NCBI GenBank assembly: GCA_030647775.1
Contig: JAUSJC010000010.1
Location: forward strand, 72,718 to 136,717
Reading direction: 5' to 3'
From: Candidatus Curtissbacteria bacterium
Lineage (GTDB): Bacteria > Patescibacteriota > Microgenomatia > Curtissbacterales > GWA2-41-24
DNA length: 64,000 nucleotides
A program made the position numbers and the translations under genes. Numbering within the stretch: position 1 is the first letter of the stretch; every line of letters begins with the position of its first letter. Below are positions 3,691-52,644 of the stretch, piece by piece. Under the pieces are notes generated by a model. That model was not told the origin of the DNA. It made no database searches and saw only the letters and a program-made list of their open reading frames with translations.

Positions 3691-5143
3691 TTCCAAGCAT
3701 TAACCGCGTATGGGCATCAATCCCCGGCAGTGCCGTAAAAACAAAAGTCACAACCGGCATTAAAATAAACTCTAGTGGCATTGTAATTTTACGGATTAAA
3801 CTAACATCTGCCCTCTTTGGTCTTTGTTTTAAATCCACGATTAAGATTACAAGCAGAAATCCCCAACATGCCGTCAAAATTCCAAAAGAAATTCTCGGCA
3901 AATTCTGGCCCATCACAGTTTGGGCAAAAAGCGGATTTATAAGAACTGGGATTGTCGCGCCAAGCGTTATAGCAAACCAGTTAACCGGCCAGAGGAAATG
4001 GTCCTCCAAAACCTTAGCAACCCGAACAGTCCTTCTCCAAAAAGGGATATGGGTATGGGTGAGCCACTTTTTAATAAAGTATGAATCATCCGAAACCCCC
4101 CACGCCCAGCGTTTTTCCTGCTCATACAAATTAACGAGCGATTTAAAGTAGCTAGTTGACTGGGCACAATCGGCATAAACCGGTAAAAATATCGGGTCGA
4201 CATCGACCTTACCCTCTTTAGCAAAAAAACTTTTGAAAAATATCCTGAAATCCTCTGGAATTACATCAACATCCCAATATCCAACATCATCGAGCAGCTT
4301 TAAAGAAAGTGAATACATCGAACAATTAACCAGCCGGTCAGTGCGGCTGTTTAAACCGGTTTGCCAAACAGAAGAAAGCGAACTCATAACCCGTATTGGC
4401 GCCGGAGTTTTCCAGATGTTGTTGTAAAAAAGCACAATCGGCTGCCAGAACGATAAATATCTGTGGTCGCTGGCCAAAAACTTATATGTAAGGCAAGAAA
4501 GATATTTTCCGTCAAAAATCCCGTCGGCATCTTTGGAAGTTACCGTAATGTAGTCAATGTTACGTCTCTGGCGATCTACCAAAATTTTCTTGGCAAGCTT
4601 CCCGGCGTATGCTTCGTTGGAAGATTTCCCTTTAACCTCGCCCTTGACGTCCGGATGGTATGTAACAATAAAATTGGCAAATTTGTTTTTATATTTGGAA
4701 GCTAAAACTTTTGCTTTATCACGAGCCTCTTTTCCCTCCCTGTCTTCAAATGCCAGACAAATCGAAATTTGTTTTTTCGGTATATCTTGGTTGGCTATCG
4801 AATCAACACCCTTTTCAATTGTATGTATTGGCTCTTTATAAGTCGGGATGACAACTAAATGGTGGACTTTGCCAAAATCAGGCAGTCGTTTAGCATCGGC
4901 GAGCCAGTCATATCTCTTGGCTGCGTTGAGTTTTACGTGGGATAGTACCGAAGTTACGGCCAAAGACCCGGATTTATAAAACCACAAAACGTCAAACAAA
5001 ATTATATAGTAGGCAACGTAATGGGGAATCCAAAAAGAACCCCAGACTGGAAAAAGGATCAGAGACCACGAAAAAGTCCCCGGCAAAATTTCCAGGAATC
5101 TATGGACTTGGCGGTCGTACCGTTCGACAAATTTTTTAATCAT
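3656..5143 (-). CDS. Family 2 glycosyltransferase, processive (cellulose/chitin/PNAG-synthase-like)
   Basis: 495 aa; N-terminal TM, GT2 core, QEKRW (QxxRW) motif, C-terminal TM helices. Confidence 0.6.
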   Translation of the reverse strand: MIKKFVERYDRQVHRFLEILPGTFSWSLILFPVWGSFWIPHYVAYYIILFDVLWFYKSGSLAVTSVLSHVKLNAAKRYDWLADAKRLPDFGKVHHLVVIPTYKEPIHTIEKGVDSIANQDIPKKQISICLAFEDREGKEARDKAKVLASKYKNKFANFIVTYHPDVKGEVKGKSSNEAYAGKLAKKILVDRQRRNIDYITVTSKDADGIFDGKYLSCLTYKFLASDHRYLSFWQPIVLFYNNIWKTPAPIRVMSSLSSVWQTGLNSRTDRLVNCSMYSLSLKLLDDVGYWDVDVIPEDFRIFFKSFFAKEGKVDVDPIFLPVYADCAQSTSYFKSLVNLYEQEKRWAWGVSDDSYFIKKWLTHTHIPFWRRTVRVAKVLEDHFLWPVNWFAITLGATIPVLINPLFAQTVMGQNLPRISFGILTACWGFLLVILIVDLKQRPKRADVSLIRKITMPLEFILMPVVTFVFTALPGIDAHTRLMLGKYLEYRVTEKV

Positions 5144-5967
5144 ATCCCAAACAGTTTCTTAGCATTATCACCAGTTATATCACTGATCCGGTCAAATGGA
5201 AGATTGCGAAGATCGGCCAAGAATTGAGCTGTTATTCTAACATTTTTCGGTTCATTAGTCTTGCCGCGCAGGGGAACGGGGGAAAGAAAGGGGGAATCGG
5301 TCTCCACCAAAATCCTATCCTCCGGTACCATCTTGGCAACTTGGGAAATCTGCCCGGCATTTTTGAAAGTCACAATTCCGGAAAAGGAAATGTAGAATCC
5401 TAAATCAAGCGCTTTCTTTGCTTGTTCCCAGTTGCCCGTCCAGGAATGGAATACCCCTTTTTTTGTCGATCGACCAAAAAATGGGAACAATAGCGCGAAG
5501 GTGTCATCCCAAGCATTGCGACAATGGACAATCAGAGGAAGGTCAAGCTCTTTTGCCAATTTTATTTGCGCTTCAAATAGTTCTCTCTGGGCTTTTTTCT
5601 GGTCCTCACTTGTTGCCGGACCTTGATCAGTCTTTTCTAAAAAATAATCCATCCCGCATTCACCAATCCCGACAACTTTTTTCGAAGACTGCGCGACTTT
5701 TTTTAATTCATCTATAAAATTAGGTCCGTACTTTTTAATATCTTTTGGACCTTCCTGCGCGTGTATCCCGCAAGTGGCGTAAACGTTAACAAGATCCGTC
5801 CCTTCGGCTATCTCAATCGACTTTCTACTCGCATCAATCGATGTTCCGACGTTAATGATTGTCGTCACCCCGGCCTCTTTCGCCCGAAGCAGCTCGATTT
5901 TTATATCTCGAATCATACCTGCCTTGCCGGCAGGCAGGTCCAAATGGCAATGGGTATCTGTGAGCAT
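5140..5967 (-). CDS. tatD: TatD family metal-dependent hydrolase/DNase
   Basis: MLTDTHCHLD..., GECGMDY motif; 21-nt palindrome CCTGCCTTGCCGGCAGGCAGG inserted in frame at 5918-5938 (encodes LPAGKAG). Confidence 0.85.
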   Translation of the reverse strand: MLTDTHCHLDLPAGKAGMIRDIKIELLRAKEAGVTTIINVGTSIDASRKSIEIAEGTDLVNVYATCGIHAQEGPKDIKKYGPNFIDELKKVAQSSKKVVGIGECGMDYFLEKTDQGPATSEDQKKAQRELFEAQIKLAKELDLPLIVHCRNAWDDTFALLFPFFGRSTKKGVFHSWTGNWEQAKKALDLGFYISFSGIVTFKNAGQISQVAKMVPEDRILVETDSPFLSPVPLRGKTNEPKNVRITAQFLADLRNLPFDRISDITGDNAKKLFGI

Positions 5968-5968
5968 T

Positions 5969-7430
5969 TTAAATTCTTGGAAATAGCGGTTTTTCTACGG
6001 AAATTTTCCCGGTGAATTGGGTCAAAATCACCTCACTGGTTTCCGGCAAAAACGGCCCTAGATTAAAAGCTATTTCGCGGATTTCTTGCGCTATCGGTGT
6101 AATTACTTTTTTCAATTTTGCCCCTTCCAATTCCCACGGCTTTTCTGCGTTGATCTTTTTATCAAGCACCGATATCTCTTCCCATAGACCGATCATTGCT
6201 TGATCAAACCGAAAGTTTTTAAGGTTCTCCAAAACCACTTTTTTAAAAGTAAAATTCTTTTTTTCGGGCAGAGCCAAGTTTGTGTCGCTTGCCAAACGTG
6301 CAACTCTTGCCACTAAATTCCCAATCCCATTTGCTAGTTCGCCGTTGTAAAGATCATGAAACCGGGTAAGCGAAAAATCCCCGTCACCCCAAGCGGGAAT
6401 TTCGCGAAGTAAATAAAACCTCACCGCCTCTTTCCCGAATTTTTCTACCAGTTCAAATGGGTCAATAACATTTCCAAGTGATTTGGAAATTTTTTGCCCT
6501 TCAACAGTTATATAACCATGGACAAATTCATCAGTTGGTAGTGGCAACCCGGCACTGGCCAACATCGCCGGCCAGTAAACGGCGTGGAAACGAATGATTC
6601 CCTTGCCAATAACGTGCAGGCGGTTTTTGTTATCGATCCAATATTTTTTATAAAGATCCTCATCTTTCCCCTCCGGGCCAGAGGCCCCTCCGGGCCGGCG
6701 GCCAAACCCAAGCGCCGTTAAATATGTAACCAGCGCATCAAACCAAACATACATAATCTGCGTTTCATCTCCCGGCACCGGTACACCCCACGAGTGTGCA
6801 CGCGCAACAGAACGGGAAATACTAAAATCTTCCAGTCCCTGGCGTATAAACGAAAGCACCTCGTGCTTTTTTGTTTGCGGGACAATTTTGAGTCTATCCG
6901 TCTGGATTAAATCGTCCAGATATTTTTGATAGTTGGAAAGTTTGAAAAAATAATTTTCTTCTTCAATCTCATCGATATTTGTATGTCCTTCCAGGCACTT
7001 GCCGTCGACGATTTCGCTGGGCGTATAAAACGCCTCACACCCCACACAATAAAGCCCCCGATAATTTTTCTTGTAAATATCTTCTTCCTTGCACAAGGAC
7101 CACAACTTTTGCGCTCCGGCAAAATGTTCTTTTGTCGCCGTTCGGTTGAAAACATCAAAGGTTAAATTTAAAGCGTCTTTTAGGCTTTCGAATCGATCCG
7201 CGTATTTTTTTACAAGAGCATCAGTCTTTACGCCCTCCGCTTCCGCCGCCTGTACATTCTTCAAAGAATTCTCATCACTCCCGGAAGAAAAGTAAACGTC
7301 ATACCCCGTCGCTCTATAAAATCTCGCCAGAGCATCCGTCTGCACAAACTCCAGTGCGTGTCCGACGTGCGGGTTGGCGTTAACATAAGGAATAGCGGTA
7401 GTAACATAAATTCGTTTCATTTTTTTCTCG
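5969..7430 (-). CDS. metG: Methionyl-tRNA synthetase
   Basis: TTAIPYVNANPHVGHA (HIGH region) and KISKSLGNV (KMSKS) motifs. ORF track extends to 7621 through two repeat elements; true start most likely MKRIY at 7430. Confidence 0.9.
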
Positions 7431-7438
7431 TCATCCCG

Positions 7439-7512
7439 AACTGACACTTGTGTCATCCCGAACTTGTTTCGGGATCTATTTTGATTCAGGATCTTTCCGA
7501 CAATTATATATT
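7439..7512. repeat. Palindromic MITE-like element, GTCATCCYGAAC...GTTCRGGATGAC family (hairpin GATCCCGAAACAAGTTCGGGATGAC)
   Basis: Nearly identical copies at 21639-21748 and 63624-63716; related copies at 17803-17858, 19381-19415, 8281-8372, 49161-49258, 52521-52608, 31332-31394, 25245-25309. Confidence 0.85.
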
Positions 7513-7600
7513 CTTCGAGTGAGTTCTGCATTGCAGAACGAATCGAGAAGTTTAGAAGTTTGAATAGTTCTCGACTTCGCTCGAACAATAAATCAATAGT
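7513..7600. repeat. MITE-like element with terminal inverted repeats CTTCGAGYGAG ... GCTCGAACAATA and internal palindrome GTTCTGCATTGCAGAAC
   Basis: Family copies at 8183-8240, 12926-12960, 18556-18660, 19246-19330, 26205-26240, 30888-30977, 35660-35754, 52497-52644, 63950-63990. Confidence 0.8.
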
Positions 7601-7615
7601 TGTACAATATAAGTA

Positions 7616-8182
7616 ATGCAAAAAGGTTTCATCGGTCCGACAATTGTCGTACTCATCGGCATTCTTGCCCTAGCTGGTCTAATTGGTCTTGCCTTTTACC
7701 TCGGCAAAAAATCCACCGGCCCAACAGCGACAACCCCTGTTGCCCAGCAAGATGAAACTACAAATTGGAAAACATACACAAGTCAAGTAACCCAGGTGGA
7801 ACTTAAATTGCCACAAGATTGGACAGAACGCCAAGAAGGCAAAACGCTTTTCTTGAAAGACAAGAAAAGCACGAGTGAGATTACAATTGTAAAAGATTTT
7901 GAAGGAGGTTTTGGGAGCAACTTGGAAGAGGCAAGGGATCCAAGGGAGATTACAATAGGCGGACAAAAAGCAACTATATATTATTATCACTCTGCCGACA
8001 ATTTTGCTGTTCTTCTTGGTGAATCCGGAACCCCAGTAGTAGATAGGGAGAACATATTTTCCAACATCTTTATCGAAAGAGGACAAGGAAACTATTTAAT
8101 TTTGGGAATGTGGAAGGCAACAGATCAGGATGCAGAAATATTACTTAACCAAATCCTCTCCACCTTCAAATTCACAAACTAG
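7616..8182 (+). CDS. Secreted/membrane-anchored protein, paralog A of a 3-member family (N-terminal signal anchor, ...GKKSTGPTATTPV..NWKTYT.. core, C-terminal QILSTFKFT)
   Basis: 188 aa; paralogs at 17882-18553 and 18698-19243 share N- and C-termini with divergent middle; -10-like element immediately upstream (leaderless-type start). Confidence 0.6.
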   Translation: MQKGFIGPTIVVLIGILALAGLIGLAFYLGKKSTGPTATTPVAQQDETTNWKTYTSQVTQVELKLPQDWTERQEGKTLFLKDKKSTSEITIVKDFEGGFGSNLEEARDPREITIGGQKATIYYYHSADNFAVLLGESGTPVVDRENIFSNIFIERGQGNYLILGMWKATDQDAEILLNQILSTFKFTN

Positions 8183-8280: not shown

Positions 8281-8372
8281 TTCAGATTCTAAAACAAGTC
8301 CAGAATGACACACTCTTAAGTCATCCTCGCGAAAGCGAGGACCTGGATTCTCGATCAGGTCGAGAATGACTA
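8281..8372. repeat. Composite palindromic repeat (AGATTCTAAAACAAGTCCAGAATGAC + GTCATCCTCGCGAAAGCGAGGAC + GTCGAGAATGAC)
   Basis: Multiple hairpins, member of GTCATYC...GAATGAC families. Confidence 0.7.
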
Positions 8373-12427: not shown

Positions 12428-12820
12428 CTATTTCTTCCCCAAATAGCTCCAAAAAGCAAAAAGCCCAACGGCTAAAATCACCCCAAATAAATTAAACAGA
12501 TTTAAAACCTGCGAGGCGGTGAGTTGGGCAACCGAAGCCACAAAAAGTGCCACGAAAAACGCCATTTTAAACGAAGTTTTAAAGTACCAACTCGGGTCAT
12601 AGCGCTTATAAAACTTTGTCCTTACAAAATAAAGCAAGCACCCAAGACCGCAAAATACAAAAGTAAATAAAAGTGCGTCAAAACCCGCGAAAATATACCA
12701 AGGCGCTTTTTGCGGGTCAAAAACCGTCACGATCCAGGCAATCCCAAAAAGCGAAGCGAATGCGGCGAGAAATGTAAAAGGCAAAAGTTGATGCATAAAT
12801 ATATTGTAACCCAGCTCCGT
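12428..12820 (-). CDS. Small hypothetical membrane protein
   Basis: 4 TM helices; ORF-track N-terminus (MPAGRSLA) is read-through of a palindromic repeat; likely start MTELGYN. Confidence 0.35.
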   Translation of the reverse strand, partial: TELGYNIFMHQLLPFTFLAAFASLFGIAWIVTVFDPQKAPWYIFAGFDALLFTFVFCGLGCLLYFVRTKFYKRYDPSWYFKTSFKMAFFVALFVASVAQLTASQVLNLFNLFGVILAVGLFAFWSYLGKK

Positions 12821-12925
12821 CATTGCGAGCGACCTGCCTGCCGGCAAGGCAGGAGCGAAGCAATCTCAAACAAGAAAGATTGCTTCGTCGCCCTGAGCGA
12901 AGTCGAAGGGCTCCTCGCAATGACA
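12821..12925. repeat. Composite palindromic element GTCATTGCGAG-[CCTGCCTGCCGGCAAGGCAGG]-GAGCGAAGCAATCTC...GATTGCTTCG-[CCCTGAGCGAAGTCGAAGGG]-CTCCTCGCAATGAC
   Basis: Outer inverted repeat GTCATTGCGAG/CTCGCAATGAC; related copies 17745-17800, 48601-48690, 19721-19803. Confidence 0.8.
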
Positions 12926-12979
12926 TCTGATAGGTTCTCGACTTCGCTCGAACGATATTCTTATGCTAAAATCCGCTAG

Positions 12980-14687: not shown

Positions 14688-17600
14688 GTGTCCAGTGTTC
14701 TCAAAGATTTAAATCCCGAACAACTTAAAGCCGTAACCACGACCGTTGGCCCGCTACTTATAATCGCCGGGGCCGGAACCGGCAAAACCGCCGTCATCGC
14801 TCACAGGATCGCCGCGATTATCGAAAAAAAACTGGCCAAGCCCTCCGAAATTCTGGCGCTAACATTTACCGACAAAGCCGCCGGCGAAATGGAAGAGCGC
14901 GTCGACATTTTAGTCCCTTACGGTTTTATCGATACCTGGATTTCTACCTTCCACGCTTTTGGCGACAGGATCCTGCGCGACAACGCCCTGGATATTGGCC
15001 TGACCCCCGATTTCAAAGTCCTTTCCCGCCCCCAGCAGGTTTTATTTTTCCAGCAAAACCTCTTTCGTTTTCAACTCGATTATTTCCGCCCGCTTTCCAA
15101 CCCCACCAAATTTATCTCCTCCATTCTTTCTTTTTTCTCCCGCTTAAAAGACGAAAACGTCAGCCCTGAGGAATTTCGGAAGTACGCTAAACGACTAATG
15201 ACCAGCGCCAAAGATCAAGAATCGAAAATCGAGGCCAAGAAGTACCAAGAGCTTGCTCAAGCCTTTGAATCTTACGAACGTTTCAAAGAAGAAGCCGGTT
15301 TTTTGGATTTTGGCGATCAGGTTGTTAAAGCAATTGAGCTATTTAAAAAGCGCCCCAAAATTCTGGCAAATTACCAAGACCAGTTTAAATATATTTTGGT
15401 TGACGAATATCAGGACACCAACTTTGCCCAAAACGAATTGGTTAAACTATTGGCCGCCCGCCACAAAAACATTTGCGTCGTCGGCGACGATGACCAATCA
15501 ATTTACAAATTCCGCGGCGCGGCAATTTCCAATATTTTGGAATTTAAAAAAACTTTCCCAAAAGCCGTGCAGGTTGTCCTTACCCAAAACTACCGTTCCA
15601 CCCAGGCAATTTTGGACAGCGCTTATAAATTGATCCGCCACAACGACCCGGATCGCTTGGAAGTCCAAAATAAAATCGACAAAAAATTGAAATCAACTGG
15701 CGGCCAGGGTATTCCGCCGCAGGAAATTTTTGCCGACACTATTTCCGAAGAAGCCGACGCGGTCGCCGGCGAAATCGAAAAGTTAATGGCAAAAAGCGTT
15801 AGTCGTTCGCCTGCCTTGCCGGCCGGCAGGTCGTTAGTCGTTAGTCGATATTCATACCGCGACTTTGCCATTCTGGTCCGCGCCAACTCCCAGGCCGATC
15901 ATTTTCTGCGGGCCCTAAACATGAAAGGCATTCCCCATAAGTTTGTCGGTTCATCCGGTCTTTACCAGCAGCCCGAGGTCAATCTTCTGATTTCTTTTCT
16001 AACTGCCATTTCTAACTTTGAAGATAGTCTGAACCTTTTTAACCTCATGACTTCCGAAATTTACGAAATGCCGGCTATCGACGCCATCAAATTAACTTCC
16101 TGGGCCAAACGTAAAAACCGTTCGCTTTTTTATATCCTTAAGAGTTTAGGGTCCGACCCTCAACCAAAAAAAGATGAAGCGTTTGAAAAGGGTCGGACCC
16201 TTGACGGCTTGGATATTTCCGGCGAATCAAAAGCCGTTGTCGAAAAACTGATTGAAGACCTAAAAGAATCAATCGAACTTTCCAAATCCCAAACTGCCGG
16301 CCGTGTGCTCTACAAATTCCTGGAAGGTGCCGGTTATCTCAAAAAGCTGGAACGTCAAAATGGAGTAGATTCTCAAATCAAAATCCAAAACATCGCCAAG
16401 TTTTTCGATAAAGTCAAAGAATTTGAAAACGTCGCCAGCCCGACATCGCCTAACGGCTCAGCGTTTGGCGGGCGGGCCAAAGTCCACACCGTTTCCCAGT
16501 TTGTCGATTATCTGGAAGCAATCCGCGGTGCCGGCGACGACCCGGCGACAGTGGAATTTGACCCGGAGACGGATGCCGTCAATGTCATGACCGTTCACGG
16601 GGCCAAAGGTCTGGAATTTCCGGTAGTTTTTATGGTCAACCTTGTTGCCGACCGTTTTCCGGTCCGTTCCCGCTCCGACGCCATCGAGGTTCCCCAAGGT
16701 CTCATTCGCGAAACTTTGCCGCAAGGAGATTGGCACCTACAGGAAGAGCGCCGCCTTTTTTATGTCGGGGCCACCCGCGCCAAAAATCTTCTCTATTTTT
16801 CCTGGTCCCGTGATGTCGGCGGCTTGCGCGCCAAGAAAATCTCCCCGTTTGTTTTGGAAGTTCTCGACAAAGCCAAATCAACAGCCGACCTTATAAAACT
16901 TTCACCGCTTGAAAAAATCGAAAAATTCGCCCCCGCCCCTCCGCGTACGACTCAACAAGTCATGTTCGATGTCGATGTCCTAAAGCTCACCCAGGGGTCA
17001 ATCGATGATTACTTAACGTGCGCCTACAAATACCGCTATATCCACATCTTGCGCATTCCCATTCTCCGCCACCACGCCATTGCCTACGGCGCGGCTCTTC
17101 ACAGTGCCGTCGGTGCTTTTCTGACATCTAAGAAAAATGGCCGCATGCTGACCATTGCCCAAACTCTGGAAGTTTTTGAAAACGCTTGGGATAGCGAAGG
17201 ATTTTTGACAATCGAACATGAAGAAAAAAGAAAAGCCGCCGGTAAACTGGCGCTGGAAAGTTTATGGAAACGCGAATCAAAAGACCCTAAACTGCCGACT
17301 CTTATCGAATCAAAATTTAATTTTTCGTTAAAAGAAGTAACAATAGTTGGCCGTTTTGATCGGGTCGATATCGGGCCCGGATCCAAAGTTCACATCATTG
17401 ATTACAAATCCTCCGAAAATATGGATCAGGAAAAGGCAAACGCCCAAGCCAAGCAGTCAAATCAATTGGCAATCTACGCTCTTTATTACTGGAAGCGCCA
17501 CAAAATTATTCCCGAAAAGTTAACGCTCCACTTTTTAGAAAACGGGGTAGAGGGAAGTTACACACCAACCGAAAAGGATTTGGAAAAAGTTGAAAAATTA

Positions 17601-17741
17601 ATACTCGATACCGCCGAAAACATCCGCGCCGACAGCAAAAATAATGCTTTTGCCGCCAAACCCAAGTATTTCGGCCGCGAACCGGCTTGTGTCTACTGTG
17701 CATACAACACAATCTGTCCATTCTCTCTGGCCAAAGTCTAA
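14688..17741 (+). CDS. UvrD/PcrA-family SF1 helicase fused to C-terminal PD-(D/E)xK nuclease with Cys-cluster (AddA/AdnB-like helicase-nuclease)
   Basis: Walker A AGAGTGKT, motifs through VHGAKGLEFP...; C-terminal ...CAYKYRYIHIL...IIDYKSS...CVYCAYNTICPF; contains in-frame repeat-derived segments at 15810-15830 and 16147-16206. Confidence 0.8.
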   Translation: MSSVLKDLNPEQLKAVTTTVGPLLIIAGAGTGKTAVIAHRIAAIIEKKLAKPSEILALTFTDKAAGEMEERVDILVPYGFIDTWISTFHAFGDRILRDNALDIGLTPDFKVLSRPQQVLFFQQNLFRFQLDYFRPLSNPTKFISSILSFFSRLKDENVSPEEFRKYAKRLMTSAKDQESKIEAKKYQELAQAFESYERFKEEAGFLDFGDQVVKAIELFKKRPKILANYQDQFKYILVDEYQDTNFAQNELVKLLAARHKNICVVGDDDQSIYKFRGAAISNILEFKKTFPKAVQVVLTQNYRSTQAILDSAYKLIRHNDPDRLEVQNKIDKKLKSTGGQGIPPQEIFADTISEEADAVAGEIEKLMAKSVSRSPALPAGRSLVVSRYSYRDFAILVRANSQADHFLRALNMKGIPHKFVGSSGLYQQPEVNLLISFLTAISNFEDSLNLFNLMTSEIYEMPAIDAIKLTSWAKRKNRSLFYILKSLGSDPQPKKDEAFEKGRTLDGLDISGESKAVVEKLIEDLKESIELSKSQTAGRVLYKFLEGAGYLKKLERQNGVDSQIKIQNIAKFFDKVKEFENVASPTSPNGSAFGGRAKVHTVSQFVDYLEAIRGAGDDPATVEFDPETDAVNVMTVHGAKGLEFPVVFMVNLVADRFPVRSRSDAIEVPQGLIRETLPQGDWHLQEERRLFYVGATRAKNLLYFSWSRDVGGLRAKKISPFVLEVLDKAKSTADLIKLSPLEKIEKFAPAPPRTTQQVMFDVDVLKLTQGSIDDYLTCAYKYRYIHILRIPILRHHAIAYGAALHSAVGAFLTSKKNGRMLTIAQTLEVFENAWDSEGFLTIEHEEKRKAAGKLALESLWKRESKDPKLPTLIESKFNFSLKEVTIVGRFDRVDIGPGSKVHIIDYKSSENMDQEKANAQAKQSNQLAIYALYYWKRHKIIPEKLTLHFLENGVEGSYTPTEKDLEKVEKLILDTAENIRADSKNNAFAAKPKYFGREPACVYCAYNTICPFSLAKV

Positions 17742-17744
17742 CCC

Positions 17745-17858
17745 CCGCCTGTCATTGCGAGGAGTTCTGCATTGCAGAACGACGAAGCAATCTCTTCATA
17801 ACCGTCATTCCGAACTTGTTTCGGAATCTAGATCCTGAAATAAATTCAGGATGACAGT
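17745..17858. repeat. Two adjacent palindromic elements (GTCATTGCGAGGAGTTCTGCATTGCAGAACGACGAAGCAATCTC and GTCATTCCGAACTTGTTTCGGAATCTAGATCCTGAAATAAATTCAGGATGAC)
   Basis: Direct reading. Confidence 0.85.
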
Positions 17859-19243: not shown

Positions 19244-19418
19244 AGATTGCTTCGCTTAGCTCGCAATGACATAATTAGTTAGTTCTCGACTCGTTCTGCA
19301 ATGCAGAACTCGCTCGAACAATATAGTTCGACCTTGCCTGCCCGTCAAAACTTTAGTGTCGTCGGGTGGAGAACTTCCAATTGACTAGATTCTGAAACAA
19401 GTTCAGAATGACAGGAAT

Positions 19419-20018
19419 ATGGTTCAGCTTTTAGTTGCTATCCTTCTCCTGATCATCATGCTTTTGCTTTTGATGATCATTGTGGGATTTTTCTTTTTTC
19501 TATTTGATATCTTTCTGGAACTTCCGTACGTTGCTACCAAACGCCATAAGATCGATACGATCATTAAATTCGCCCAGATCAAACCTGGTCAAACTGTGGT
19601 TGATCTTGGGGCAGGCGACGGCAGATTACTCATCGCCTCCGCCCAAAAAGGCGCCAATGCCATTGGCTACGAGATTAACCCGTTTTTAATTTTAATAACG
19701 AGAATCAGAGCACACTTCTTGTCATTGCGATCCGCCAGCTGGCGGAGAAGCAGTCTCAAAAGAGGAGATCACCACGGTCATCAAGATGACCTCGCGATGA
19801 CAGGGAAGGTGATTGTTTATAAATCAAACCTCTGGCGCGCCGATCTGGCCGTCGCCGATGTCGTTTTTGTCTACGGCCGCCGCAAAACCATGCAAAAATT
19901 CCAGGATTTTGTTTATAAAAACGCCAGATCTGGCACAAGAGTTATTGTCAATACAAATCCTTTTCCAAATAAAAAGTACGTTAAATCAGAAAACGGAATT
20001 TTTCTATACAAAATATAA
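19419..20018 (+). CDS. Membrane-anchored class I SAM-dependent methyltransferase (small) with in-frame palindromic-element insertion
   Basis: VVDLGAGDGRLL motif I; 19721-19803 element GTCATTGCGA...TCGCGATGAC encodes HFLSLRSASWRRSSLKRGDHHGHQDDLAMTGK in frame. Confidence 0.55.
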   Translation: MVQLLVAILLLIIMLLLLMIIVGFFFFLFDIFLELPYVATKRHKIDTIIKFAQIKPGQTVVDLGAGDGRLLIASAQKGANAIGYEINPFLILITRIRAHFLSLRSASWRRSSLKRGDHHGHQDDLAMTGKVIVYKSNLWRADLAVADVVFVYGRRKTMQKFQDFVYKNARSGTRVIVNTNPFPNKKYVKSENGIFLYKI

Positions 20019-20611: not shown

Positions 20612-21643
20612 TTAAAATCTGGTCGCGCGAAGTAAAAACCATCTTAGCGTGTCGGCCGCACTAAGAAGCCTATATAAAGTAGGATCTAAGACCAAATCAT
20701 ATGTTCCCACGTACTCCACGTGCCTGGCCCCATAACCAGCCTTAAATCTATGGAACCCATACCACGGGTCATTGGTGTCTGGCTCCGGGCCAAGCGCCCC
20801 CCACATATCAAATGTTTTAAGCTCTAATTTTTTACCCAGTCTGATTGCCTCCCAAGCAAGCAGGTTCGAAGCCATTACATCTTTATACTTTGTCGACGAT
20901 CCGCCATACGGGTAATATAGTGTGTCGCCAAAGCTAAAAAGCATCCAAGCCACAAGCGGTTTTTTATTGTACTTGGCGATCATTACTCGTGCCATTCTGG
21001 AATCTTTTAAAGTTTTCCAAGCCAAACGGTGATAGGTGGGTGTATGGCCAAAATATTTCTGGCGTTTGGTCGTTTCAAAGTAAAGTTTTAGGTAAATCTC
21101 AAAGTCTTTATCCTCCACCGAGTCATAAACTTCCACGCCCTTTTTCTGCGCCACTTTTATGTTGTAACGTGTCTTTGGATGCATCCCGGCCAAAATTTGC
21201 TCTTCGGATCGGGTCAAATCCAGCACGAAATTGTATTTGGTGAACAGCGCCTTCTTGGCCTTTACCAATCCTAATTTTTCTATGTTTTGAGTTTGGAGTT
21301 TTGAGTTTGGAGTTTGAATCACGTCCGGTTCAATCTTAATAAACGCCGCATTTTTCTCCCGTCCAATAGCTTCGAGCGCGTCGACCATTCCCTTATCCGG
21401 CATCGGTCCTTTTGGGAAATAGCCGATTGTCCAGTTCAGTTTTGGTACTTTATGGAATGTTAGCTGGTAAGCTTTCTTCAGGGTCCGACCCTCGAAATGC
21501 CCGACCCGCACAACGTCTACTCCAGTTTTCTTCCTAAATTCCCCCCATTCCCACGACTGGATTATATGGGAAGCTTGTTTGTCGTAAGCAGTGCGGACTT
21601 TGTCAGTCAGTATTCTGTAGGACATATACTCTTCTTCCGTCAT
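20612..21643 (-). CDS. FemAB-family peptidoglycan interpeptide-bridge aminoacyltransferase (FemX-like)
   Basis: QSWEWGEF motif, 343 aa; contains GGGTCCGACCC repeat copy (21480-21507, encodes EGRTL). Confidence 0.8.
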   Translation of the reverse strand: MTEEEYMSYRILTDKVRTAYDKQASHIIQSWEWGEFRKKTGVDVVRVGHFEGRTLKKAYQLTFHKVPKLNWTIGYFPKGPMPDKGMVDALEAIGREKNAAFIKIEPDVIQTPNSKLQTQNIEKLGLVKAKKALFTKYNFVLDLTRSEEQILAGMHPKTRYNIKVAQKKGVEVYDSVEDKDFEIYLKLYFETTKRQKYFGHTPTYHRLAWKTLKDSRMARVMIAKYNKKPLVAWMLFSFGDTLYYPYGGSSTKYKDVMASNLLAWEAIRLGKKLELKTFDMWGALGPEPDTNDPWYGFHRFKAGYGARHVEYVGTYDLVLDPTLYRLLSAADTLRWFLLRATRF

Positions 21644-21748
21644 CCTGAACTGACACCTGTGTCATCCCGAACTCGTTTCGGGATCTGTCTTGTTTCAGGA
21701 TCTTTTTTGAGATGCTGAACTGAATTCAGCATGACATGGTACTGTTGA
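21639..21748. repeat. Palindromic MITE-like element (near-identical to 7439-7512) plus GATGCTGAACTGAATTCAGCATGAC hairpin
   Basis: Direct reading; abuts femAB start codon. Confidence 0.85.
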
Positions 21749-23043: not shown

Positions 23044-23622
23044 TTAAATCAACTTAAACAATTTCAGTATCAAATAAGGTTCCGCTAGTCCCACAATTGC
23101 CCCGGTCAAAACTTGTGCCAAAGTATGTTTTTTAAGATAAATCCGAGCATATGCAATCGGTAGAGTTAAAAGAAAAAACCAAAGGAATCTCCAATCGTAA
23201 AGAAAGTTTATTAAAAACAATGATCCAAAAGCCATAAACACGTGCCCGCTAATTTTAAAGAAAAAAGTTATTCCCAAAAGAGTCAGTCCCATCAGAAGAG
23301 CCGTTAAATGCAAAGTAAAAAACAATTGATTGCTAAATAAAAAAGAAATAATTGTACCAATCAAAAAAAGTACGTTTGCCAAGCCGAATAAGAGATACCT
23401 CTCATGTCTATTAGTTACATCTATGTCGCTTACCTTACCAGTTTTCATCAAAAACTTAAAACCGACAATCGGGCAAATCACGTCAATAAGGGCCAAAAGA
23501 GGCAAAAGAATTATTATTTGATTTTGCCAAAGACCAGTTTTAGCAATTGCCGTCAAGAGAAGTAAAGGAAACCAAAAATAAGAATCGAAAACGCGGGAAA
23601 TTATTTTCGCAAACTTTCTCAT
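23044..23622 (-). CDS. PAP2-family membrane phosphatase (tentative)
   Basis: 192 aa; ISGHV (PSGH) and RIYLKKHTLAQVLTG (SRx5Hx3D-like) motifs. Confidence 0.5.
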   Translation of the reverse strand: MRKFAKIISRVFDSYFWFPLLLLTAIAKTGLWQNQIIILLPLLALIDVICPIVGFKFLMKTGKVSDIDVTNRHERYLLFGLANVLFLIGTIISFLFSNQLFFTLHLTALLMGLTLLGITFFFKISGHVFMAFGSLFLINFLYDWRFLWFFLLTLPIAYARIYLKKHTLAQVLTGAIVGLAEPYLILKLFKLI

Positions 23623-25535
23623 ATCGCTGTTACTAGCTCTTCCGGTATATCGATAATAAACCTCGAAACCAAATTGGCGCTGGTTGTTCCAAAATAAAGC
23701 CGGTTGGCGGCATAAGAAAGATAAAGTTTTTTCCTGGCCCGCGTCAGCCCCACATAGGCCAGCCGTCTCTCCTCCTCAATTTGCCCCGGGTCCAGCATGC
23801 TCCTGGAATGCGGAAACAGCCCTTCTTCCATGCCCACAATAAACACGTTATCGAATTCCAGCCCTTTGGCGGCATGAATTGTCATTAGCGTCACAAAATC
23901 TTTTTCAATCGGCAGTTCATACGATTTTTCCGGTGCCACTTTTCCTTCCATTAAAGTTACGTTTTCCAGAAACTGCGGCAAGTTCTCAAAATCCGCCGCT
24001 ACTGATTTTAATTCCTTTACGTTTTCTACCCGCGACAAACCTTCTTCCGTCCCATCATCTATAACTTTCAAATAATCCGTAGCTTCCAAAACTTTATCAA
24101 TAAGCTCGATCGGCTTGGGTAGGGTCCGACCCTCACCCACGTCATCATCGTGTTTTTTGTGCCTAGGGTCGGACCCTATGCCGCGCAGAGTTAACTTCTC
24201 GCGAAGCTCGTCGAATTTCTCAAAGCGCCTTTTGCCAAGTTTAAATGTCCTGTTTTTAGAAACCGTGTCGCGCGGATTGGCGATCAGCCTCAAATAAGCC
24301 ATTACATCTTTAACTTCTTTTCGCGCGTAAAAGCTAACGCCGCCGTAAAGTTTATAGGGAATGTTAGAGTGGAGAAACGCTTCTTCGACAGTCCTTGATT
24401 GTGCGTTTGTCCGGTACAAAATGGCAAAAGAAGAAAGCGGCAATCGCGAGCCAAAAATCCTGTCGACGATAAAGTTAGCTTCATCCACCTCGTTCATCGC
24501 GCCGTAGACGCTTATCTTTTCTCCGGTATCGTTTTGCGTCCACAGCTTTAAAACCGGATGGGAAGCATTTTGGGAAATTATTTTGTTGGCGGCCGACAAG
24601 ATATTACCCGTCGATCTGTAGTTTTGTTCAAGGTTAAAGACTTTTGCGCTCGGGAAATCGTTTTTGAAGTTTAAAATATTCCTAAAATCGGCTCCGCGGA
24701 AAGAATAAATTGCCTGCGAAGCGTCGCCGACGACCGTCAAATTTCCATGTGTCGATGCCAAAAGTTTCGTCAGTTGGTACTGGGACGTATTAACATCCTG
24801 ATATTCGTCAACTAAAACATATTCAAACCTTCCGGCCCACTTTTCCAAAATTTGAGGACTCGTTTCAAAAAGCTTGACCGTCTGCATCAGTAAATCGTCA
24901 AAATCACAGGCGTTAATCTCGAGTAGCGTCTTTTGATAAAGGTTATAAACTTTGGAAACCGTCTCCCCAAAATAACCCCGCGCAAATTGGGCGTAGTCGG
25001 AAGGCAGCAGAAGTTCTCCTTTTGCCCCGGAAATCGCGTTTAAAATTGAACTTGGCTTGAAACTTTTTGGGGGGATATCCAAATCCTTCATAATACTTTT
25101 CACCAAACTCAAACTATCACTGCTGTCATAAATCAAATAGCCGCTGGGGATCCCGATGTGTTTTCCGTCAAATCTCAAAAGCTTGGCGCAAAAGGCATGG
25201 AAGGTGCCTACGTATGGGGAGTCGTTTATCGTTAATCGATTATTGTCATTCTGGAGCGAAGCGATAGAATCTCTAGATCCTATCGTGGTCGTTGCCACTC
25301 CAGGATGACGGTGAAGGAGCTGATACACCCTCTCTTTCATTTCATTGGCCGCTTTATTGGTGAACGTCACGGCTATAATGTTTGAAGGCTTTATTCCCTT
25401 GGAAATTAAATACGCCACTTTATACGTCAAGACTCTCGTCTTCCCACTACCGGCTCCGGCCATAATCAAAACCGGCCCTTCGGTAGCCAAAACCGCTTCC
25501 TTCTGTGCCGGGTCAAGGTCTTTCAAAATATCCAT
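23619..25535 (-). CDS. pcrA: UvrD/PcrA/Rep-family DNA helicase
   Basis: MAGAGSGKTRVLT Walker A, TFTNKAANEM, VDEYQD, canonical SF1 motifs; in-frame insertions at 25245-25309 and 24118-24178. Confidence 0.9.
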   Translation of the reverse strand: MDILKDLDPAQKEAVLATEGPVLIMAGAGSGKTRVLTYKVAYLISKGIKPSNIIAVTFTNKAANEMKERVYQLLHRHPGVATTTIGSRDSIASLQNDNNRLTINDSPYVGTFHAFCAKLLRFDGKHIGIPSGYLIYDSSDSLSLVKSIMKDLDIPPKSFKPSSILNAISGAKGELLLPSDYAQFARGYFGETVSKVYNLYQKTLLEINACDFDDLLMQTVKLFETSPQILEKWAGRFEYVLVDEYQDVNTSQYQLTKLLASTHGNLTVVGDASQAIYSFRGADFRNILNFKNDFPSAKVFNLEQNYRSTGNILSAANKIISQNASHPVLKLWTQNDTGEKISVYGAMNEVDEANFIVDRIFGSRLPLSSFAILYRTNAQSRTVEEAFLHSNIPYKLYGGVSFYARKEVKDVMAYLRLIANPRDTVSKNRTFKLGKRRFEKFDELREKLTLRGIGSDPRHKKHDDDVGEGRTLPKPIELIDKVLEATDYLKVIDDGTEEGLSRVENVKELKSVAADFENLPQFLENVTLMEGKVAPEKSYELPIEKDFVTLMTIHAAKGLEFDNVFIVGMEEGLFPHSRSMLDPGQIEEERRLAYVGLTRARKKLYLSYAANRLYFGTTSANLVSRFIIDIPEELVTAI

Positions 25536-30689: not shown

Positions 30690-32585
30690 ATGAACATCCG
30701 AAACTTTGCTCTAATTGCCCATATTGACCATGGCAAATCAACTCTTGCCGATCGTATTATGGAAGCCTGCGGCGCAGTTGGTACTTCTCACCAAGCCCAG
30801 CTTTTGGATAGTCTGGAGCTGGAGCGCGAGCACGGCATTACCATCAAACTCAAGGCGATCCGATTAGTTTACAAACCGGAAAATATTCTTCGAGCGAGCG
30901 AAGCGAGTCGAGAAGTTTCCACTGAAAATATTAATAGTTCTAAAGGTAAGTTCTCGATAAACTCGAACAATAATGACGCATTCATCTTGAACTTACTTGA
31001 TACTCCCGGCCATGTCGATTTTTCTTACGAGGTTTCCCGTTCGCTGGCCTCTGTCGAAGGCGCGATCCTAATTGTTGATGCTACTCAAGGCGTCCAGGCC
31101 CAAACGCTTTCCAATTTCACCCTCGCCCTCGATGCTAACCTCACCCTAATTCCCGTCATCAATAAGATTGATTCACCCCAAGCCGAGGTTGAAAAAACCC
31201 AGGAAGAGCTGAAAAACCTTGGTTTTTCACAAGCGGAAATAATCAAAGTTTCTGCCAAAACAGGCGAAGGAGTGGATCATCTTCTCGAACAAATCGTCAG
31301 CCGCATCCCACCGCCCACAAACTTCTCCGCACGTCATTCTGAACTCGTTTCAGAATCTAAAGACAAGATCCCGAATCAAGTTCGGGATGACAAGTTGAGA
31401 GCCCTCATTTTCGATTCCAGTCTAGATCCCTACAAAGGCGTCATCGCGACAGTCCGCTTATTTGGCGGAGGCCTAAAAGTAGGGGACCAGATAAAATTTT
31501 TGGCAACCGGCGCGCAAGCAGAGGTATTGCAAATCGGCTACCTAACTCCGGTCGTCAAATATGTCAATGAAATTAAATCGGGTGAAGTCGGCTTTATCGT
31601 TACCAATCTTAAGGACTTATTCAAAGTCGAAGTCGGGGATACCATCACCAGTCCCAAGGATCCGGCCAAACCGCTTCTCGGTTATAAGCATGCCAAACCG
31701 GTTGTTTTCCTTTCCTTTTATCCAACCGATGTCGGCGATTTTCCAAAATTAAAAGAAGGCCTGGAAAAATTAAAGCTAAACGATGCGGCGCTTTCCTTTT
31801 CCCCGGAAACTTCCATCTCCCTGGGCCAGGGCCTTCGCGTCGGCTTCCTCGGCTTACTCCACGCTCAAATTACCCAGGAGCGTTTGGAGCGCGAACATAA
31901 TCTGGATATTATTGCCGTTTCGCCTTCTGTCAATTTCGAAGTTGACGGCAAGCTTATCAATAAACCGTCGGAATTTGATCCGGCCGCCCAAAACGTCAAA
32001 GAGCCTTATGCCAAAGTAACCATTTTTGCCCCTCAAAAATATTTCGGCACCGTCTCCAATCTTGTTCACGACAAAAGAGGGACTCTCGGCAACTCCGAAA
32101 ACATCGGAAATCTTTTGAAAATCGAATGCGAAATTCCGCTCTTAGAACTTCTAATTGGTTTTTACGACCAATTAAAGACGCAAACTTCCGGTTACGGATC
32201 GCTCGATTTTGAACTGTCGGAGTATAAACCGGCAAAACTGGCCAAACTCGATATTCTGGTCAATCACGAACCGATAGAAGCCCTAACCCAGATTGTTCCG
32301 TACCAAAGGGCTGAAGAAATTGGCCGCAAATTTGTGGAAAAACTAAAAGATGCCATCCCGCGCCAGCAAATCCCAGTTCCAATCCAGGCGGCCATCGGCG
32401 GCAAAATTATCGCCCGCGAAACAATCGCCTCCTTTAGAAAAGACGTTACTGCTAAACTCTACGGCGGCGATGTCACGCGCAAGATGAAGCTTTTGCAAAA
32501 GCAAAAGAAGGGGAAGAAACGAATGAGAAGATTTGGAAGTGTCGATATTCCACAAGAAGCTTTCCTGGCTGTCCTTAAAGTATAA
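30690..32585 (+). CDS. lepA: Elongation factor 4 (LepA) carrying two in-frame repeat-element insertions
   Basis: IAHIDHGKSTL, DTPGHVDF, NKID, C-terminal LepA-specific domain; 631 aa vs ~600 typical. Confidence 0.9.
   Translation: MNIRNFALIAHIDHGKSTLADRIMEACGAVGTSHQAQLLDSLELEREHGITIKLKAIRLVYKPENILRASEASREVSTENINSSKGKFSINSNNNDAFILNLLDTPGHVDFSYEVSRSLASVEGAILIVDATQGVQAQTLSNFTLALDANLTLIPVINKIDSPQAEVEKTQEELKNLGFSQAEIIKVSAKTGEGVDHLLEQIVSRIPPPTNFSARHSELVSESKDKIPNQVRDDKLRALIFDSSLDPYKGVIATVRLFGGGLKVGDQIKFLATGAQAEVLQIGYLTPVVKYVNEIKSGEVGFIVTNLKDLFKVEVGDTITSPKDPAKPLLGYKHAKPVVFLSFYPTDVGDFPKLKEGLEKLKLNDAALSFSPETSISLGQGLRVGFLGLLHAQITQERLEREHNLDIIAVSPSVNFEVDGKLINKPSEFDPAAQNVKEPYAKVTIFAPQKYFGTVSNLVHDKRGTLGNSENIGNLLKIECEIPLLELLIGFYDQLKTQTSGYGSLDFELSEYKPAKLAKLDILVNHEPIEALTQIVPYQRAEEIGRKFVEKLKDAIPRQQIPVPIQAAIGGKIIARETIASFRKDVTAKLYGGDVTRKMKLLQKQKKGKKRMRRFGSVDIPQEAFLAVLKV
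30888..30977. repeat. MITE-like element (TTCGAGCGAG...GTTCTCGATAAACTCGAACAATAATGAC) inserted in frame in lepA G domain
   Basis: Encodes ~ILRASEASREVSTENINSSKGKFSINSNNN between conserved KAIRLVYKP and LNLLDTPGH. Confidence 0.8.
31332..31394. repeat. Palindromic element CGTCATTCTGAACTCGTTTCAGAATC...CCGAATCAAGTTCGGGATGAC inserted in frame in lepA
   Basis: Encodes SARHSELVSESKDKIPNQVRDD in loop after PPP motif. Confidence 0.8.
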
Positions 32586-35051: not shown

Positions 35052-35672
35052 ATGAAAAACGATATGCCCAAAACCAAATCTAACAAAACGGCCGAAGGCC
35101 CTGAGCAAAGTCGAAGGGACCAAAAACACGTCGAAGACCTTGAGCGCAGTCGAAGGGCCGAAGACCCTGAGCAAAGTCGAAGGGCCGCAGGTCATGAGAA
35201 TGATCGAATGGAGCTCGAAAACCGGCTCAAGCGTGCCCTTGCCGATTACCAGAATCTGGAGCGCCGTGTAGAAGAAGAGCGCAGGCTTTTGGGTCAACTT
35301 TCGTCAGCTCTTTTGATCGAGAAATTTTTGCCGGTTTTGGATAATCTGGAAAACGCCCAAAAACATTTGAACGACGAGGGCCTGGAAATTGTCATCCGTC
35401 AATTTAAAGATATTCTGTCTTCCGAAGGTGTTGAAGAAATCGAGTCCGTTGGTGCTGCTTTTGACCCTCATCAGCACGAAGCAGCCGAAGTCCAGGAAGG
35501 CGAAAACGACAATACAGTTGTCAAAGTCTTGCGTAAAGGTTATAAAATGAATGATAAGGTTCTTCGACCTGCCCAAGTTGTTGTCGAGAAAAAATCCGCC
35601 GGCGACAGCCAATCAGACAGTCTTGGTCAGGGAGTAAAAGAAGAGGAGGTTAATTATTCTTCGAGCGAGTGA
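35052..35672 (+). CDS. grpE: Nucleotide exchange factor GrpE with repeat-derived N-terminal extension
   Basis: LKRALADYQNLERRVEEERR core; N-terminus contains three tandem ~21-nt units (35099-35186) encoding PEQSRRD/LERSRRA/PEQSRRA. Confidence 0.85.
   Translation: MKNDMPKTKSNKTAEGPEQSRRDQKHVEDLERSRRAEDPEQSRRAAGHENDRMELENRLKRALADYQNLERRVEEERRLLGQLSSALLIEKFLPVLDNLENAQKHLNDEGLEIVIRQFKDILSSEGVEEIESVGAAFDPHQHEAAEVQEGENDNTVVKVLRKGYKMNDKVLRPAQVVVEKKSAGDSQSDSLGQGVKEEEVNYSSSE
35099..35186. repeat. Three tandem copies of CCYTGAGCRMAGTCGAAGGGMC inside grpE coding sequence
   Basis: Same unit at 12891-12911, 57298-57318, 48497-48518, 45839-45862, inverted at 35693-35712. Confidence 0.8.
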
Positions 35673-52496: not shown

Positions 52497-52644
52497 AGTA
52501 TCCTTCGAGCGAAACAAGAAGTAATGTCATCCTGAACTAGATTCAGGATCTAGATTCCGAAAGATACAGGGCCATGCGACCTAAAGGTCTAAAGTTCGGA
52601 ATGACAATGAATGTAAGTTCTCGTTAACACTCGAACAATATAAA
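52497..52644. repeat. Nested repeat: CTTCGAGCGAAACAAGAAG + GTCATCCTGAACTAGATTCAGGATC...GTTCGGAATGAC + GTTCTCGTTAACACTCGAACAATA
   Basis: TIR family element containing palindromic family element. Confidence 0.8.

Follow-up and report, generated by a model that had tools for sequence, protein, structure and literature searches.

The two UvrD-type helicase genes in a 64-kb stretch of a Candidatus Curtissbacteria contig (JAUSJC010000010.1, positions 72,718 to 136,717; hereafter the window, to which all coordinates refer), encoding PcrA and a helicase-nuclease fusion, contain palindromic inserts that keep the reading frame. We attribute these inserts, with a probability of about 0.8, to copies of small G+C-rich palindromic repeats of the repetitive extragenic palindrome (REP) type, which fall into three families and have spread through the genome. 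The inserts had been noticed in a first-pass annotation of the window, and all the sequences that it named in PcrA, the helicase-nuclease and FemAB are present, to within 1-3 bases of its coordinates. Alignment with orthologous helicases, the check that it proposed, shows in both genes extra in-frame palindromic DNA that the closest orthologs lack. Its focus on UvrD helicases proved too narrow: LepA, GrpE, a methyltransferase-like open reading frame (ORF), TatD and an AAA ATPase carry copies too. Loci from other genomes are designated below by L numbers and PcrA orthologs by P numbers (L003, L004 and L001 correspond to P0002, P0003 and P0004 respectively).

Palindromic inserts in two helicase genes

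The PcrA/UvrD-type helicase is encoded on the minus strand (23619-25535; 638 aa; Pfam UvrD-helicase and UvrD_C) and is 100% identical to a database protein of Candidatus Curtissbacteria, which belongs to the Patescibacteria or Candidate Phyla Radiation (CPR). It carries two in-frame inserts. The alignment to the solved structure of Geobacillus PcrA (1pjr; E = 5e-156) breaks at query residues 74-107 (1pjr residues 80-87) and 437-476 (PcrA 421-481), and these breaks coincide with both inserts. We take the two positions to be close to the junctions of domains 1A and 1B and of 2A and 2B. The AlphaFold model, computed from a 35-sequence alignment and of moderate quality (mean pLDDT, the predicted local distance difference test, of 70.5), gives values below 50 at residues 77-102 and 452-469, i.e. 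at both inserts, which are flanked by confidently predicted helices and strands. From this low pLDDT and the gaps against 1pjr, the inserts are predicted to occupy fold-compatible surface or linker positions, as do intragenic REPs and Rickettsia palindromic elements (RPEs).

The first insert (site 1; 25245-25311) encodes RHPGVATTTIGSRDSIASLQND and has the layout of a CGTC/TGTC REP dimer with its tags facing outward. Its arms are GTCATTCTGGAG (25246-25257) and CTCCAGGATGAC (25299-25310). On the gene strand the two units are CGTC-ATCCTGGA...TAGGAT-CTA and TGTC-ATTCTGGA...TAGAAT-CTC, and the whole reads through as CGTC-ATCCTGGA...TAGGAT-CTA-GA-GATTCTA...TCCAGAAT-GACA. Features of CGTC REPs are recognisable in its tags (CGTC and TGTC), in the eight bases that open its stems (ATCCTGGA and ATTCTGGA) and in its tails (CTA and CTC), and head and tail agree with the canonical REP consensus TGTCATCCTGAACTTGTTTCAGGATCTA. 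The stems nevertheless pair over 5-6 bp only, with loops of 9-16 nt (canonical: 8 bp and 5 nt). The predicted folding energy is -30 to -37 kcal/mol (z = -4.5 to -5.0). Judged from its sequence, the insert is best read as a decayed or expanded REP dimer. In the DNA alignment it accounts for about 75 extra nt relative to L004 and L001, and it is present in L003. Thus the palindrome reported near 25245 is a real insertion, absent from L004 and L001, but it is no isolated case: it reads best as a degenerate dimer of a common CGTC/TGTC REP family, of which the window has 12 canonical copies. Adjoining the dimer, the segment 25222-25243 (TCGTTTATCGTTAATC, encoding NRLTIND) differs by 3 mismatches from the TCGTTAGTCGTTAGTC repeat and is probably what is left of an earlier heptamer-repeat element. 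The full element is present at site 1 of other PcrA orthologs, in the form ...LIVHGSS...ERSTIND..., and P0009-P0012 have ...ERSTIND / DRLLTMHD elements there.

The second insert (site 2; 24120-24178) encodes GIGSDPRHKKHDDDVGEGRTL and is a doublet of the 13-nt palindrome AGGGTC-S-GACCCT. Its arms, TAGGGTCCGACCCT (24120-24133) and AGGGTCGGACCCTA (24165-24178), are 100% complementary and are separated by a 31-nt spacer. The DNA alignment gives a net 54 extra nt relative to L004 and L001, and the fold is stable (z = -4.1 to -5.0). At the same site L003 has a different 90-nt palindromic element, of the CGTC type.

In a protein alignment of 35 Curtissbacteria PcrA orthologs, the closest ones (P0003, P0004 and P0006-P0008) lack both segments, with 88-94% identity outside the gaps; P0003 (L004) and P0004 (L001) are 91-94% identical outside the gaps. 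By the first-pass annotation's own test, peptides conserved in relatives without the palindrome would have refuted it; the relatives that lack the palindrome lack the peptide as well, and the refutation fails. We then classified the inserts of 120 PcrA orthologs, types being assigned by reading the peptides. At site 2, about 61 have no insert (basal length of 24-25 residues), 11 have one of the GSDP/GRTL type and about 21 one of the CGTC type, with peptides such as VIPAKAGIQ...DQVGNDK, VIASEAKQS...RNDR, RHPERSEGS...QNDN and similar; the rest are other palindromic peptides. At site 1, 35 orthologs show the basal length (13-17 residues) and all others exceed it, and a third site is filled in 6 of the 120. 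Neither site is filled in the closest relative, but more distant relatives do have inserts. This patchy distribution means that PcrA inserts were gained, lost or replaced repeatedly.

The second gene (14688-17741, plus strand) encodes a UvrD-type helicase fused to a PD-(D/E)XK nuclease (1017 aa; Pfam UvrD-helicase, UvrD_C and PDDEXK_1) and also has two in-frame inserts. Its ortholog in L001 (986 aa, 81% identical) is without both. The first insert (15799-15846, encoding SVSRSPALPAGRSLVVS) consists of GTTAGTCGTT direct repeats around the palindrome CCTGCCTTGCCGGCCGGCAGG (15810-15830), and these 48 nt are absent from the L001 ortholog. The GTTAGTCGTT repeats are a heptamer repeat that occurs elsewhere too (6 matches in the window vs 0.26 expected). 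The palindrome at 15810-15830, already pointed out in the first-pass annotation, stands as an inserted repeat with 4 copies in the window, but it has no unusually stable fold: the segment 15795-15850 scores z of about -0.5 vs shuffles, and we rejected a strong hairpin at this true repeat. The other insert is a second AGGGTC-S-GACCCT doublet (16148-16201; 28-nt spacer; z = -4.7 to -5.3) encoding GSDPQPKKDEAFEKGRTL. Its arms AGGGTCCGACCCT (16148-16160) and AGGGTCGGACCCT (16189-16201) are perfectly complementary, and the region 16148-16198 holds a net 39 extra nt relative to the L001 ortholog. The paired element that had been proposed to be common to PcrA and the helicase-nuclease is a shared repeat, beyond chance.

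An assembly artefact was rejected because the independent assemblies L003, L119 and L120 have the same elements at the same sites. In L120, from a related Curtissbacteria genome, the helicase-nuclease ortholog (L120:20659-21881, running off the locus end) is 1410 aa long with Pfam Hint and Intein_splicing matches, i.e. the gene has an intein there. A small GIY-YIG ORF (87-90 aa) lies directly beside the gene in L001 (L001:8550-8813) and L120 (L120:20286-20558); the corresponding position of the window holds the REP dimer 17803-17856 and then a 229-aa ORF without Pfam match.

Repeat families of the window

CGTC REPs carry a CGTC or TGTC tag (CCTC being allowed), an 8-9 bp stem starting with A-T/T-A pairs, a 4-5 nt loop and a 3-nt CCA tail, and the CGTC-2 family has an 8-bp stem and a 5-nt loop (Di Nocera 2013, BMC Genomics 14:522, PMC3733652). 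A tagged-hairpin scan of the window detected a family of the form (C/T)GTC-ATYCYGAA-NNNNN-TTCRGRAT-CTA, missed by the first-pass annotation. The pattern GTCATNCNGAA-N5-TTCNGNATC occurs in 12 copies vs 0.01 expected. The tag is TGTC in 10 units and CGTC in 2. All have the 8-bp stem and 5-nt loop of CGTC-2, and their first and second pairs are without exception AU and UA. In the stem alignment 96 of 96 cells pair, and 11 double-sided changes fall at two stem positions, pairs 3 and 5 (one of them being CG, UA or GC, the other UA or CG); shuffled and slid controls come nowhere near this covariation. The 3-nt tail is CTA in 7 of the 12 units and CTG, CTC, CTT or CCG in the others, where the CGTC REP consensus is CCA. 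Non-coding DNA, which makes up 11% of the window, holds 9 of the 12 units, a mostly extragenic location as in CGTC REPs. The canonical family of the window is thus, except for its variant tail, a CGTC REP family by each feature compared.

Eight of the 12 units form four inverted dimers. Three are intergenic: 17803-17856 just 3' of the helicase-nuclease gene, 21660-21736 upstream of femAB, and 63645-63715, whose differing stems ATCCTGAA and ATGCCGAA are internally compensated (z = -5.3 to -5.9). The fourth (31332-31392) lies in the LepA gene. Two further intergenic units (8285-8309 and 8347-8370) occupy 8283-8370 on the minus strand, and single intergenic units are found at 19386-19413 (minus) and 52525-52552 (plus). 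The unit at 7451-7478 (plus) belongs to a small REP cluster (7430-7500) in a putative N-terminal extension of the MetRS ORF (5969-7621, TTG start). Since the Pfam match starts near residue 64 and the cluster lies within the extension of about 60 codons, the true MetRS start is probably downstream of these REPs, which would make them extragenic.

We screened for inserts of at least 5 aa all window ORFs with a syntenic ortholog in L001-L004 (about 25 kb comparable). Window-specific inserts were found in the helicase-nuclease (2), PcrA (2), LepA (2), GrpE and the methyltransferase-like ORF; these five genes have repeats in frame in a conserved gene and absent from its orthologs, as in RPEs and intragenic REPs. 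In LepA (30690-32585) the canonical CGTC-2-type dimer at 31332-31392 is in frame, encodes RHSELVSESKDKIPNQVRDD and is absent from the LepA of L002 and L003; the second insert (30876-30977; 34 aa, ending in ...AATAATGACG) is by eye a degenerate CGTC-type element. The methyltransferase-like ORF (19419-20018; weak Pfam Methyltransf_23 match) has an in-frame CGTC-type dimer of the ATTGCGA subfamily (19722-19813) and, relative to L001, two window-specific inserts of 12 aa (z = -4.0 and -2.8). GrpE (35052-35672) measures 206 aa vs 166-182 aa in relatives, with window-specific inserts of 7 and 26 aa relative to L002 and L003. Its greater length is due to three tandem CCCTGAGCRMAGTCGAAGGG-type units in frame (35088-35207, plus strand; PEQSRR repeats) that read AEGPEQSRR, EDLERSRR and AEDPEQSRR. 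A CCCTGAGCRMAGTCGAAGGG-type unit is also present at 12893-12912, in non-coding DNA. With TatD and the AAA ATPase, described below, at least 7 window genes have in-frame palindromic repeats. Most of these elements are open in 1-4 of the 6 frames, and each intragenic copy is read, stop-free, in an open frame. Purifying selection acting on random insertions would leave such a pattern, which also argues for translation of the copies over their splicing.

The second family is that of the AGGGTC-S-GACCCT doublets. The 11-mer GGGTCCGACCC (GGGTCSGACCC motif), with at most 1 mismatch, has 5 sites in the window (10 strand matches) vs 0.69 expected, a number that none of 100 shuffles reaches. Pairs of GGGTCCGACCC are doublets of the 13-mer. 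Both window doublets are intragenic, and the 13-mer doublets fold as 13-14 bp hairpins on either strand (z = -4.1 to -5.3), with spacers of 24-31 nt among the Curtissbacteria copies that we looked at. L119 and L120 likewise have such a doublet, with a 24-nt spacer, at PcrA site 2, and in L120 the central bases are swapped in a compensatory way. Of 83 metagenomic pairs, however, 45 have identical central bases and 38 complementary ones. We therefore rejected a single long hairpin with a paired centre: the centre is unconstrained despite the swap in L120. Because the central bases are unconstrained and the spacers unrelated in these 83 pairs, the conserved module is, as far as the sequences tell, the 13-mer itself and not one long hairpin. 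The spacers of the two window doublets have marginal similarity (p about 0.04-0.05), and the spacer in the window PcrA bears no relation to the ones that L119 and L120 have there; a conserved spacer, or a single mobile doublet, was set aside as marginal at best.

The four bases over the 5' ends of the units, the last two of which (AG) open the 13-mer, are GTAG, ATAG, TTAG, CAAG and TCAG or CGAG in the window and ATAG, ACAG and ATGG in other phyla. Membership of the GTAG REPs was rejected for want of a conserved 5' GTAG, and the 13-mer doublet is best described as an untagged doublet resembling the REP doublets forming hairpins (REPINs). The first-pass annotation had asked whether the element always encodes GSDP...GRTL. 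It does not: other CPR genes read GSDP...GSDP (L005 and L006) or GPTP...GVGP (L082), and we rejected a fixed reading frame.

Pairs of the core 11-mer were also searched for in a genome collection with one genome per species, perfect arms being required. They occur in at least 114 stretches of many phyla, the palindrome usually carrying lineage-specific extensions. Low-GC contigs of the CPR type repeatedly have the doublet in frame in housekeeping genes, apparently those of a PrmC-like methyltransferase, a Mur ligase and a peptide deformylase (identities judged by eye from the translations), with reading frames that vary from gene to gene. Perfect 13-mer doublets at the same gene position recur in several CPR-like contigs, namely in Mur-ligase-like ORFs of L006, L131, L141 and L144 and in PrmC-like ORFs of L023, L145, L153, L162 and L174, with unrelated spacers and differing central bases. 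They could reflect recurrent insertion or conserved arms with a drifting loop. This recurrence is a biased sample, since the loci came from a perfect-arm search. L006 (CAZLVB010000040.1) is labelled 'uncultured Gammaproteobacteria'; at 42% GC, and with a 685-aa ORF that resembles a fusion of a GlmU-like domain and a Mur ligase and has a CPR-style in-frame doublet, this contig may have been wrongly binned or labelled. Many of the genome-scan matches come from a single high-GC metagenome-assembled genome, 'Proteobacteria bacterium SZAS-71' (JAFEDG01; L009, L015, L031, L032, L036, L043, L046, L053, L067, L069, L070, L074, L080, L084 and others). All its matches have the extended form AAATAGGGTCSGACCCTATTT, as doublets with spacers of about 31 nt, and they seem to make up a large family of the REPIN type that shares the core 11-mer.

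A lone exact GGGTCCGACCC lies in femAB (FemAB-family protein, 20612-21643, minus strand) at 21481-21491, where it encodes EGRTL. The first-pass annotation had listed it as a third partial copy. The exact 11-mer is there, but it is not an insert: the region has no length change relative to three orthologs, and 6 of 12 nt differ from the closest (L001). On this ground a decayed insertion was rejected. Within 21481-21520, on the gene strand, an exact GGGTCGGACCC stands 15 nt downstream of a near-copy, CGGGTCGGGC, which belongs to the conserved VRVGH coding sequence and is GGGTTGGAC in L001. The substitutions that made the motif might have been templated locally.

The third family is the palindrome CCTGCCTTGCCGGCNGGCAGG, with 4 window copies vs 0.08 expected. 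Besides the copy in the helicase-nuclease gene, a CCTGCCTTGCCGGCAGGCAGG copy is in frame in TatD (5140-5967) at 5918-5938, encoding LPAGKAG, and another in the AAA ATPase ORF (52645-53739) at 52955-52975. A composite, mostly intergenic element spans 12815-12950: a CGTC REP, CGTCATTGCGAGCGA...AGCGAAGCAATCTC, has the CCTGCC palindrome (12833-12853) nested in its loop and is followed by more REP-like units. Rfam gave no family at gathering score anywhere in the 64-kb window, and known RNA families were rejected as the identity of the elements. On the same search, the window is apparently without tRNA, rRNA and riboswitch genes.

Origin of the inserts

How REP-type copies would give rise to these inserts can be set out in a few steps. 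Copies land in DNA, coding DNA included, and the intragenic ones are in frame, stop-free and absent from the closest orthologs. A copy would be tolerated when its length is a multiple of three, when it offers a stop-free frame and when it falls in a flexible surface linker; tolerated copies would then be translated as extra, largely neutral loop peptides. Spread may proceed by mobilisation in trans of hairpin DNA, as proposed for REPs and REPINs, or by conversion between copies. Existing palindromes seem to be preferred landing sites, and attraction of insertions by palindromes would explain why elements are nested and why different families reuse the two PcrA sites.

Several observations weigh against this explanation. 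The portion of the genome covered is the 64-kb window. No transposase, and in particular no REP-associated tyrosine transposase (RAYT), was found among 20 window ORFs scanned against Pfam, including those beside REP clusters; no consistent target-site duplication, which miniature inverted-repeat transposable elements would be expected to show, was seen at the borders of the four helicase inserts. Mobility is therefore what we infer. The AGGGTC-S-GACCCT unit may not be one mobile unit at all, because it has no conserved GTAG or CGTC tag and its loops are barely alike. In PcrA orthologs found via protein similarity, the GSDP and GRTL arm peptides are near-intact and the loops vary in length and sequence, which neutral decay does not predict. 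The same codon-level PcrA sites are reused by unrelated families and palindromes are nested in palindromes, for which passive insertion and decay do not fully account. The femAB 11-mer arose by clustered substitutions without length change, so that simple insertion fails there. Lastly, the AlphaFold model of PcrA has further low-confidence stretches besides the inserts.

In view of the near-intact arms, the reuse of sites, the nesting and the femAB substitutions, insertion or conversion may to some extent be targeted to existing hairpins, or the 13-mer may be under selection as a DNA signal. The palindromes would in that case be actively kept or renewed at linker sites of Patescibacteria housekeeping genes (PcrA sites 1 and 2, PrmC-like, Mur ligase), either via hairpin-targeted insertion or conversion or because the 13-nt unit is selected as a DNA recognition or uptake signal. 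We regard this as unlikely, but if true, short peptide loops in essential proteins would be written and rewritten in CPR genomes by a system dedicated to this.

An alternative proposal is that the short palindromes are selected DNA-level signals, sites of dimeric proteins or uptake and recognition sequences, whose presence in genes is tolerated or favoured. DNA uptake sequences of Neisseria and uptake signal sequences of Haemophilus also occur as inverted pairs and within genome-maintenance genes. Such a signal would fit the near-intact GSDP and GRTL arms with free loops in PcrA orthologs, the perfect 13-mer pairs with unrelated loops at the same PrmC-like and Mur-ligase positions in several CPR-like contigs, and the making of the femAB copy by substitutions and not by insertion. 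The near balance of complementary (38) and same (45) central bases also suits independent 6-1-6 protein sites better than one hairpin. But the density is low (5 units in 64 kb), the perfect-arm scans bias the PrmC and Mur recurrence, and no candidate binding protein was identified; the same sites moreover take quite different palindrome families, which points to permissive sites and not to a specific signal. We consider selected signals quite improbable. That the inserts are adaptive protein modules, surface loops selected in helicases for partner binding or for regulation at domain hinges, appears very unlikely. Both PcrA inserts do sit at breaks of the alignment to the solved structure, and a possible change of activity through REPs in repair genes, giving rise to mutator states, was a speculation of Di Nocera et al. 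(PMC3733652). However, the closest orthologs do without both inserts, other orthologs have unrelated peptides at the same sites, the same DNA element is read in differing frames in other genes, the same families also populate non-coding DNA, and the inserts are predicted to be disordered.

Local manufacture of the palindromes, by template switching or hairpin-primed repair synthesis at fragile sites and not by movement of elements, would account for the want of target-site duplications (four helicase inserts) and of a transposase (20 window ORFs), for the repeated striking of the same sites and for the femAB motif, made without length change with the near-copy GGGTCGG 15 nt upstream. It fails to explain identical stretches of 11-25 nt at unlinked loci (12 REPs, 4 CCTGCC and 5 GGGTCSGACCC) and the occurrence of the same families in other phyla, and we give it very little credit. 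Finally, the inserts might be excised as intron-like RNA hairpins or intein-like peptides, leaving the helicases effectively uninterrupted. Very stable RNA hairpins are indeed predicted (z = -4 to -6) and the helicase-nuclease gene of a relative has a true intein. But all the intragenic copies are in frame and stop-free although mostly open in 1-4 frames, a constraint that excised DNA would escape; Rfam has no match in the window, Pfam finds no intein or Hint domain in its proteins, and the inserts are just 13-34 aa long. Excision is barely credible.

Relation to known repeats and meaning for Patescibacteria

Spread of REP-type repeats, the explanation that we prefer, has precedents. Intragenic REP dimers encode 20-30 aa, and genes of replication and repair, such as those of UvrD/Rep helicases and recBCD, hold many of the intragenic REPs; two Xanthomonas species have different REPs at about the same recB site, and no dedicated transposase is known for CGTC REPs (PMC3733652). 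In the supplementary table of the same study, RHSELVSGS is the peptide of a CGTC-2 REP from Sulfurovum, and the UvrD/REP helicases of R. palustris and K. olearia are entered as having CGTC REPs (PMC3733652). The family of the window shares with CGTC-2 the tag, the 8-bp stem starting with A-T/T-A, the 5-nt loop, a 3-nt tail, the extragenic bias and the inverted dimers. Its in-frame dimers encode about 20 aa, RHSELVSES in LepA compared with RHSELVSGS in Sulfurovum. UvrD/Rep and RecB-type genes are among the reported hosts of CGTC REPs, and as for these, no associated transposase was found here among the 20 ORFs scanned. It differs in its host, a member of the Patescibacteria, in its tail (CTA, not CCA), in the degenerate PcrA copy (stems of 5-6 bp, loops of 9-16 nt) and in having intragenic copies in many housekeeping genes of one 64-kb stretch.

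In-frame palindromic repeats in housekeeping genes are best known from the RPEs (Ogata et al. 2000, 2002). Like the present elements, they lie in frame in unrelated housekeeping genes of a small, host-dependent genome and encode additional peptides at fold-compatible positions, and RPE-4 and RPE-6 are CGTC REPs (PMC3733652). The elements described here are however shorter (21-92 nt vs about 150 bp for RPE-1), belong to several unrelated families and occur in an unrelated phylum. With the RAYT-mobilised REPINs (Bertels & Rainey 2011) the 13-mer doublets share two short inverted palindromic units, the spacer of 24-31 nt (Curtissbacteria) and a hairpin of 13-14 bp. Unlike REPINs, they have no conserved GTAG tag, no RAYT among the 20 window ORFs scanned, poorly conserved spacers and unit centres that are not preferentially complementary, and both window doublets are intragenic.

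The phyla of the 2013 REP survey do not include Patescibacteria/CPR (PMC3733652). Our literature search returned no report of such elements in this group, and the 11-mer was not found in the publications searched. The inserts are thus a known phenomenon, in-frame intragenic repeats of the REP/RPE type, in a new host group, the Patescibacteria. The link to DNA-repair genes suggested by the first-pass annotation and by Di Nocera et al. is not specific within the window. Coding sequences with REP or RPE-like elements were known from Proteobacteria and a small number of other phyla; they are now seen in ultra-small genomes, where selfish DNA would be expected to be scarce. The two hypervariable PcrA sites offer a natural map of insertion tolerance in UvrD-type helicases. 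More generally, translation of palindromic repeats could be behind a good part of the length variation of Patescibacteria proteins and behind many of their odd low-complexity peptides (GSDP...GRTL, RHSELVS..., VIPAKAGIQ..., LPAGKAG), with consequences for annotation, ortholog alignment, structure prediction and phylogenies of a very large uncultured branch of the bacteria.

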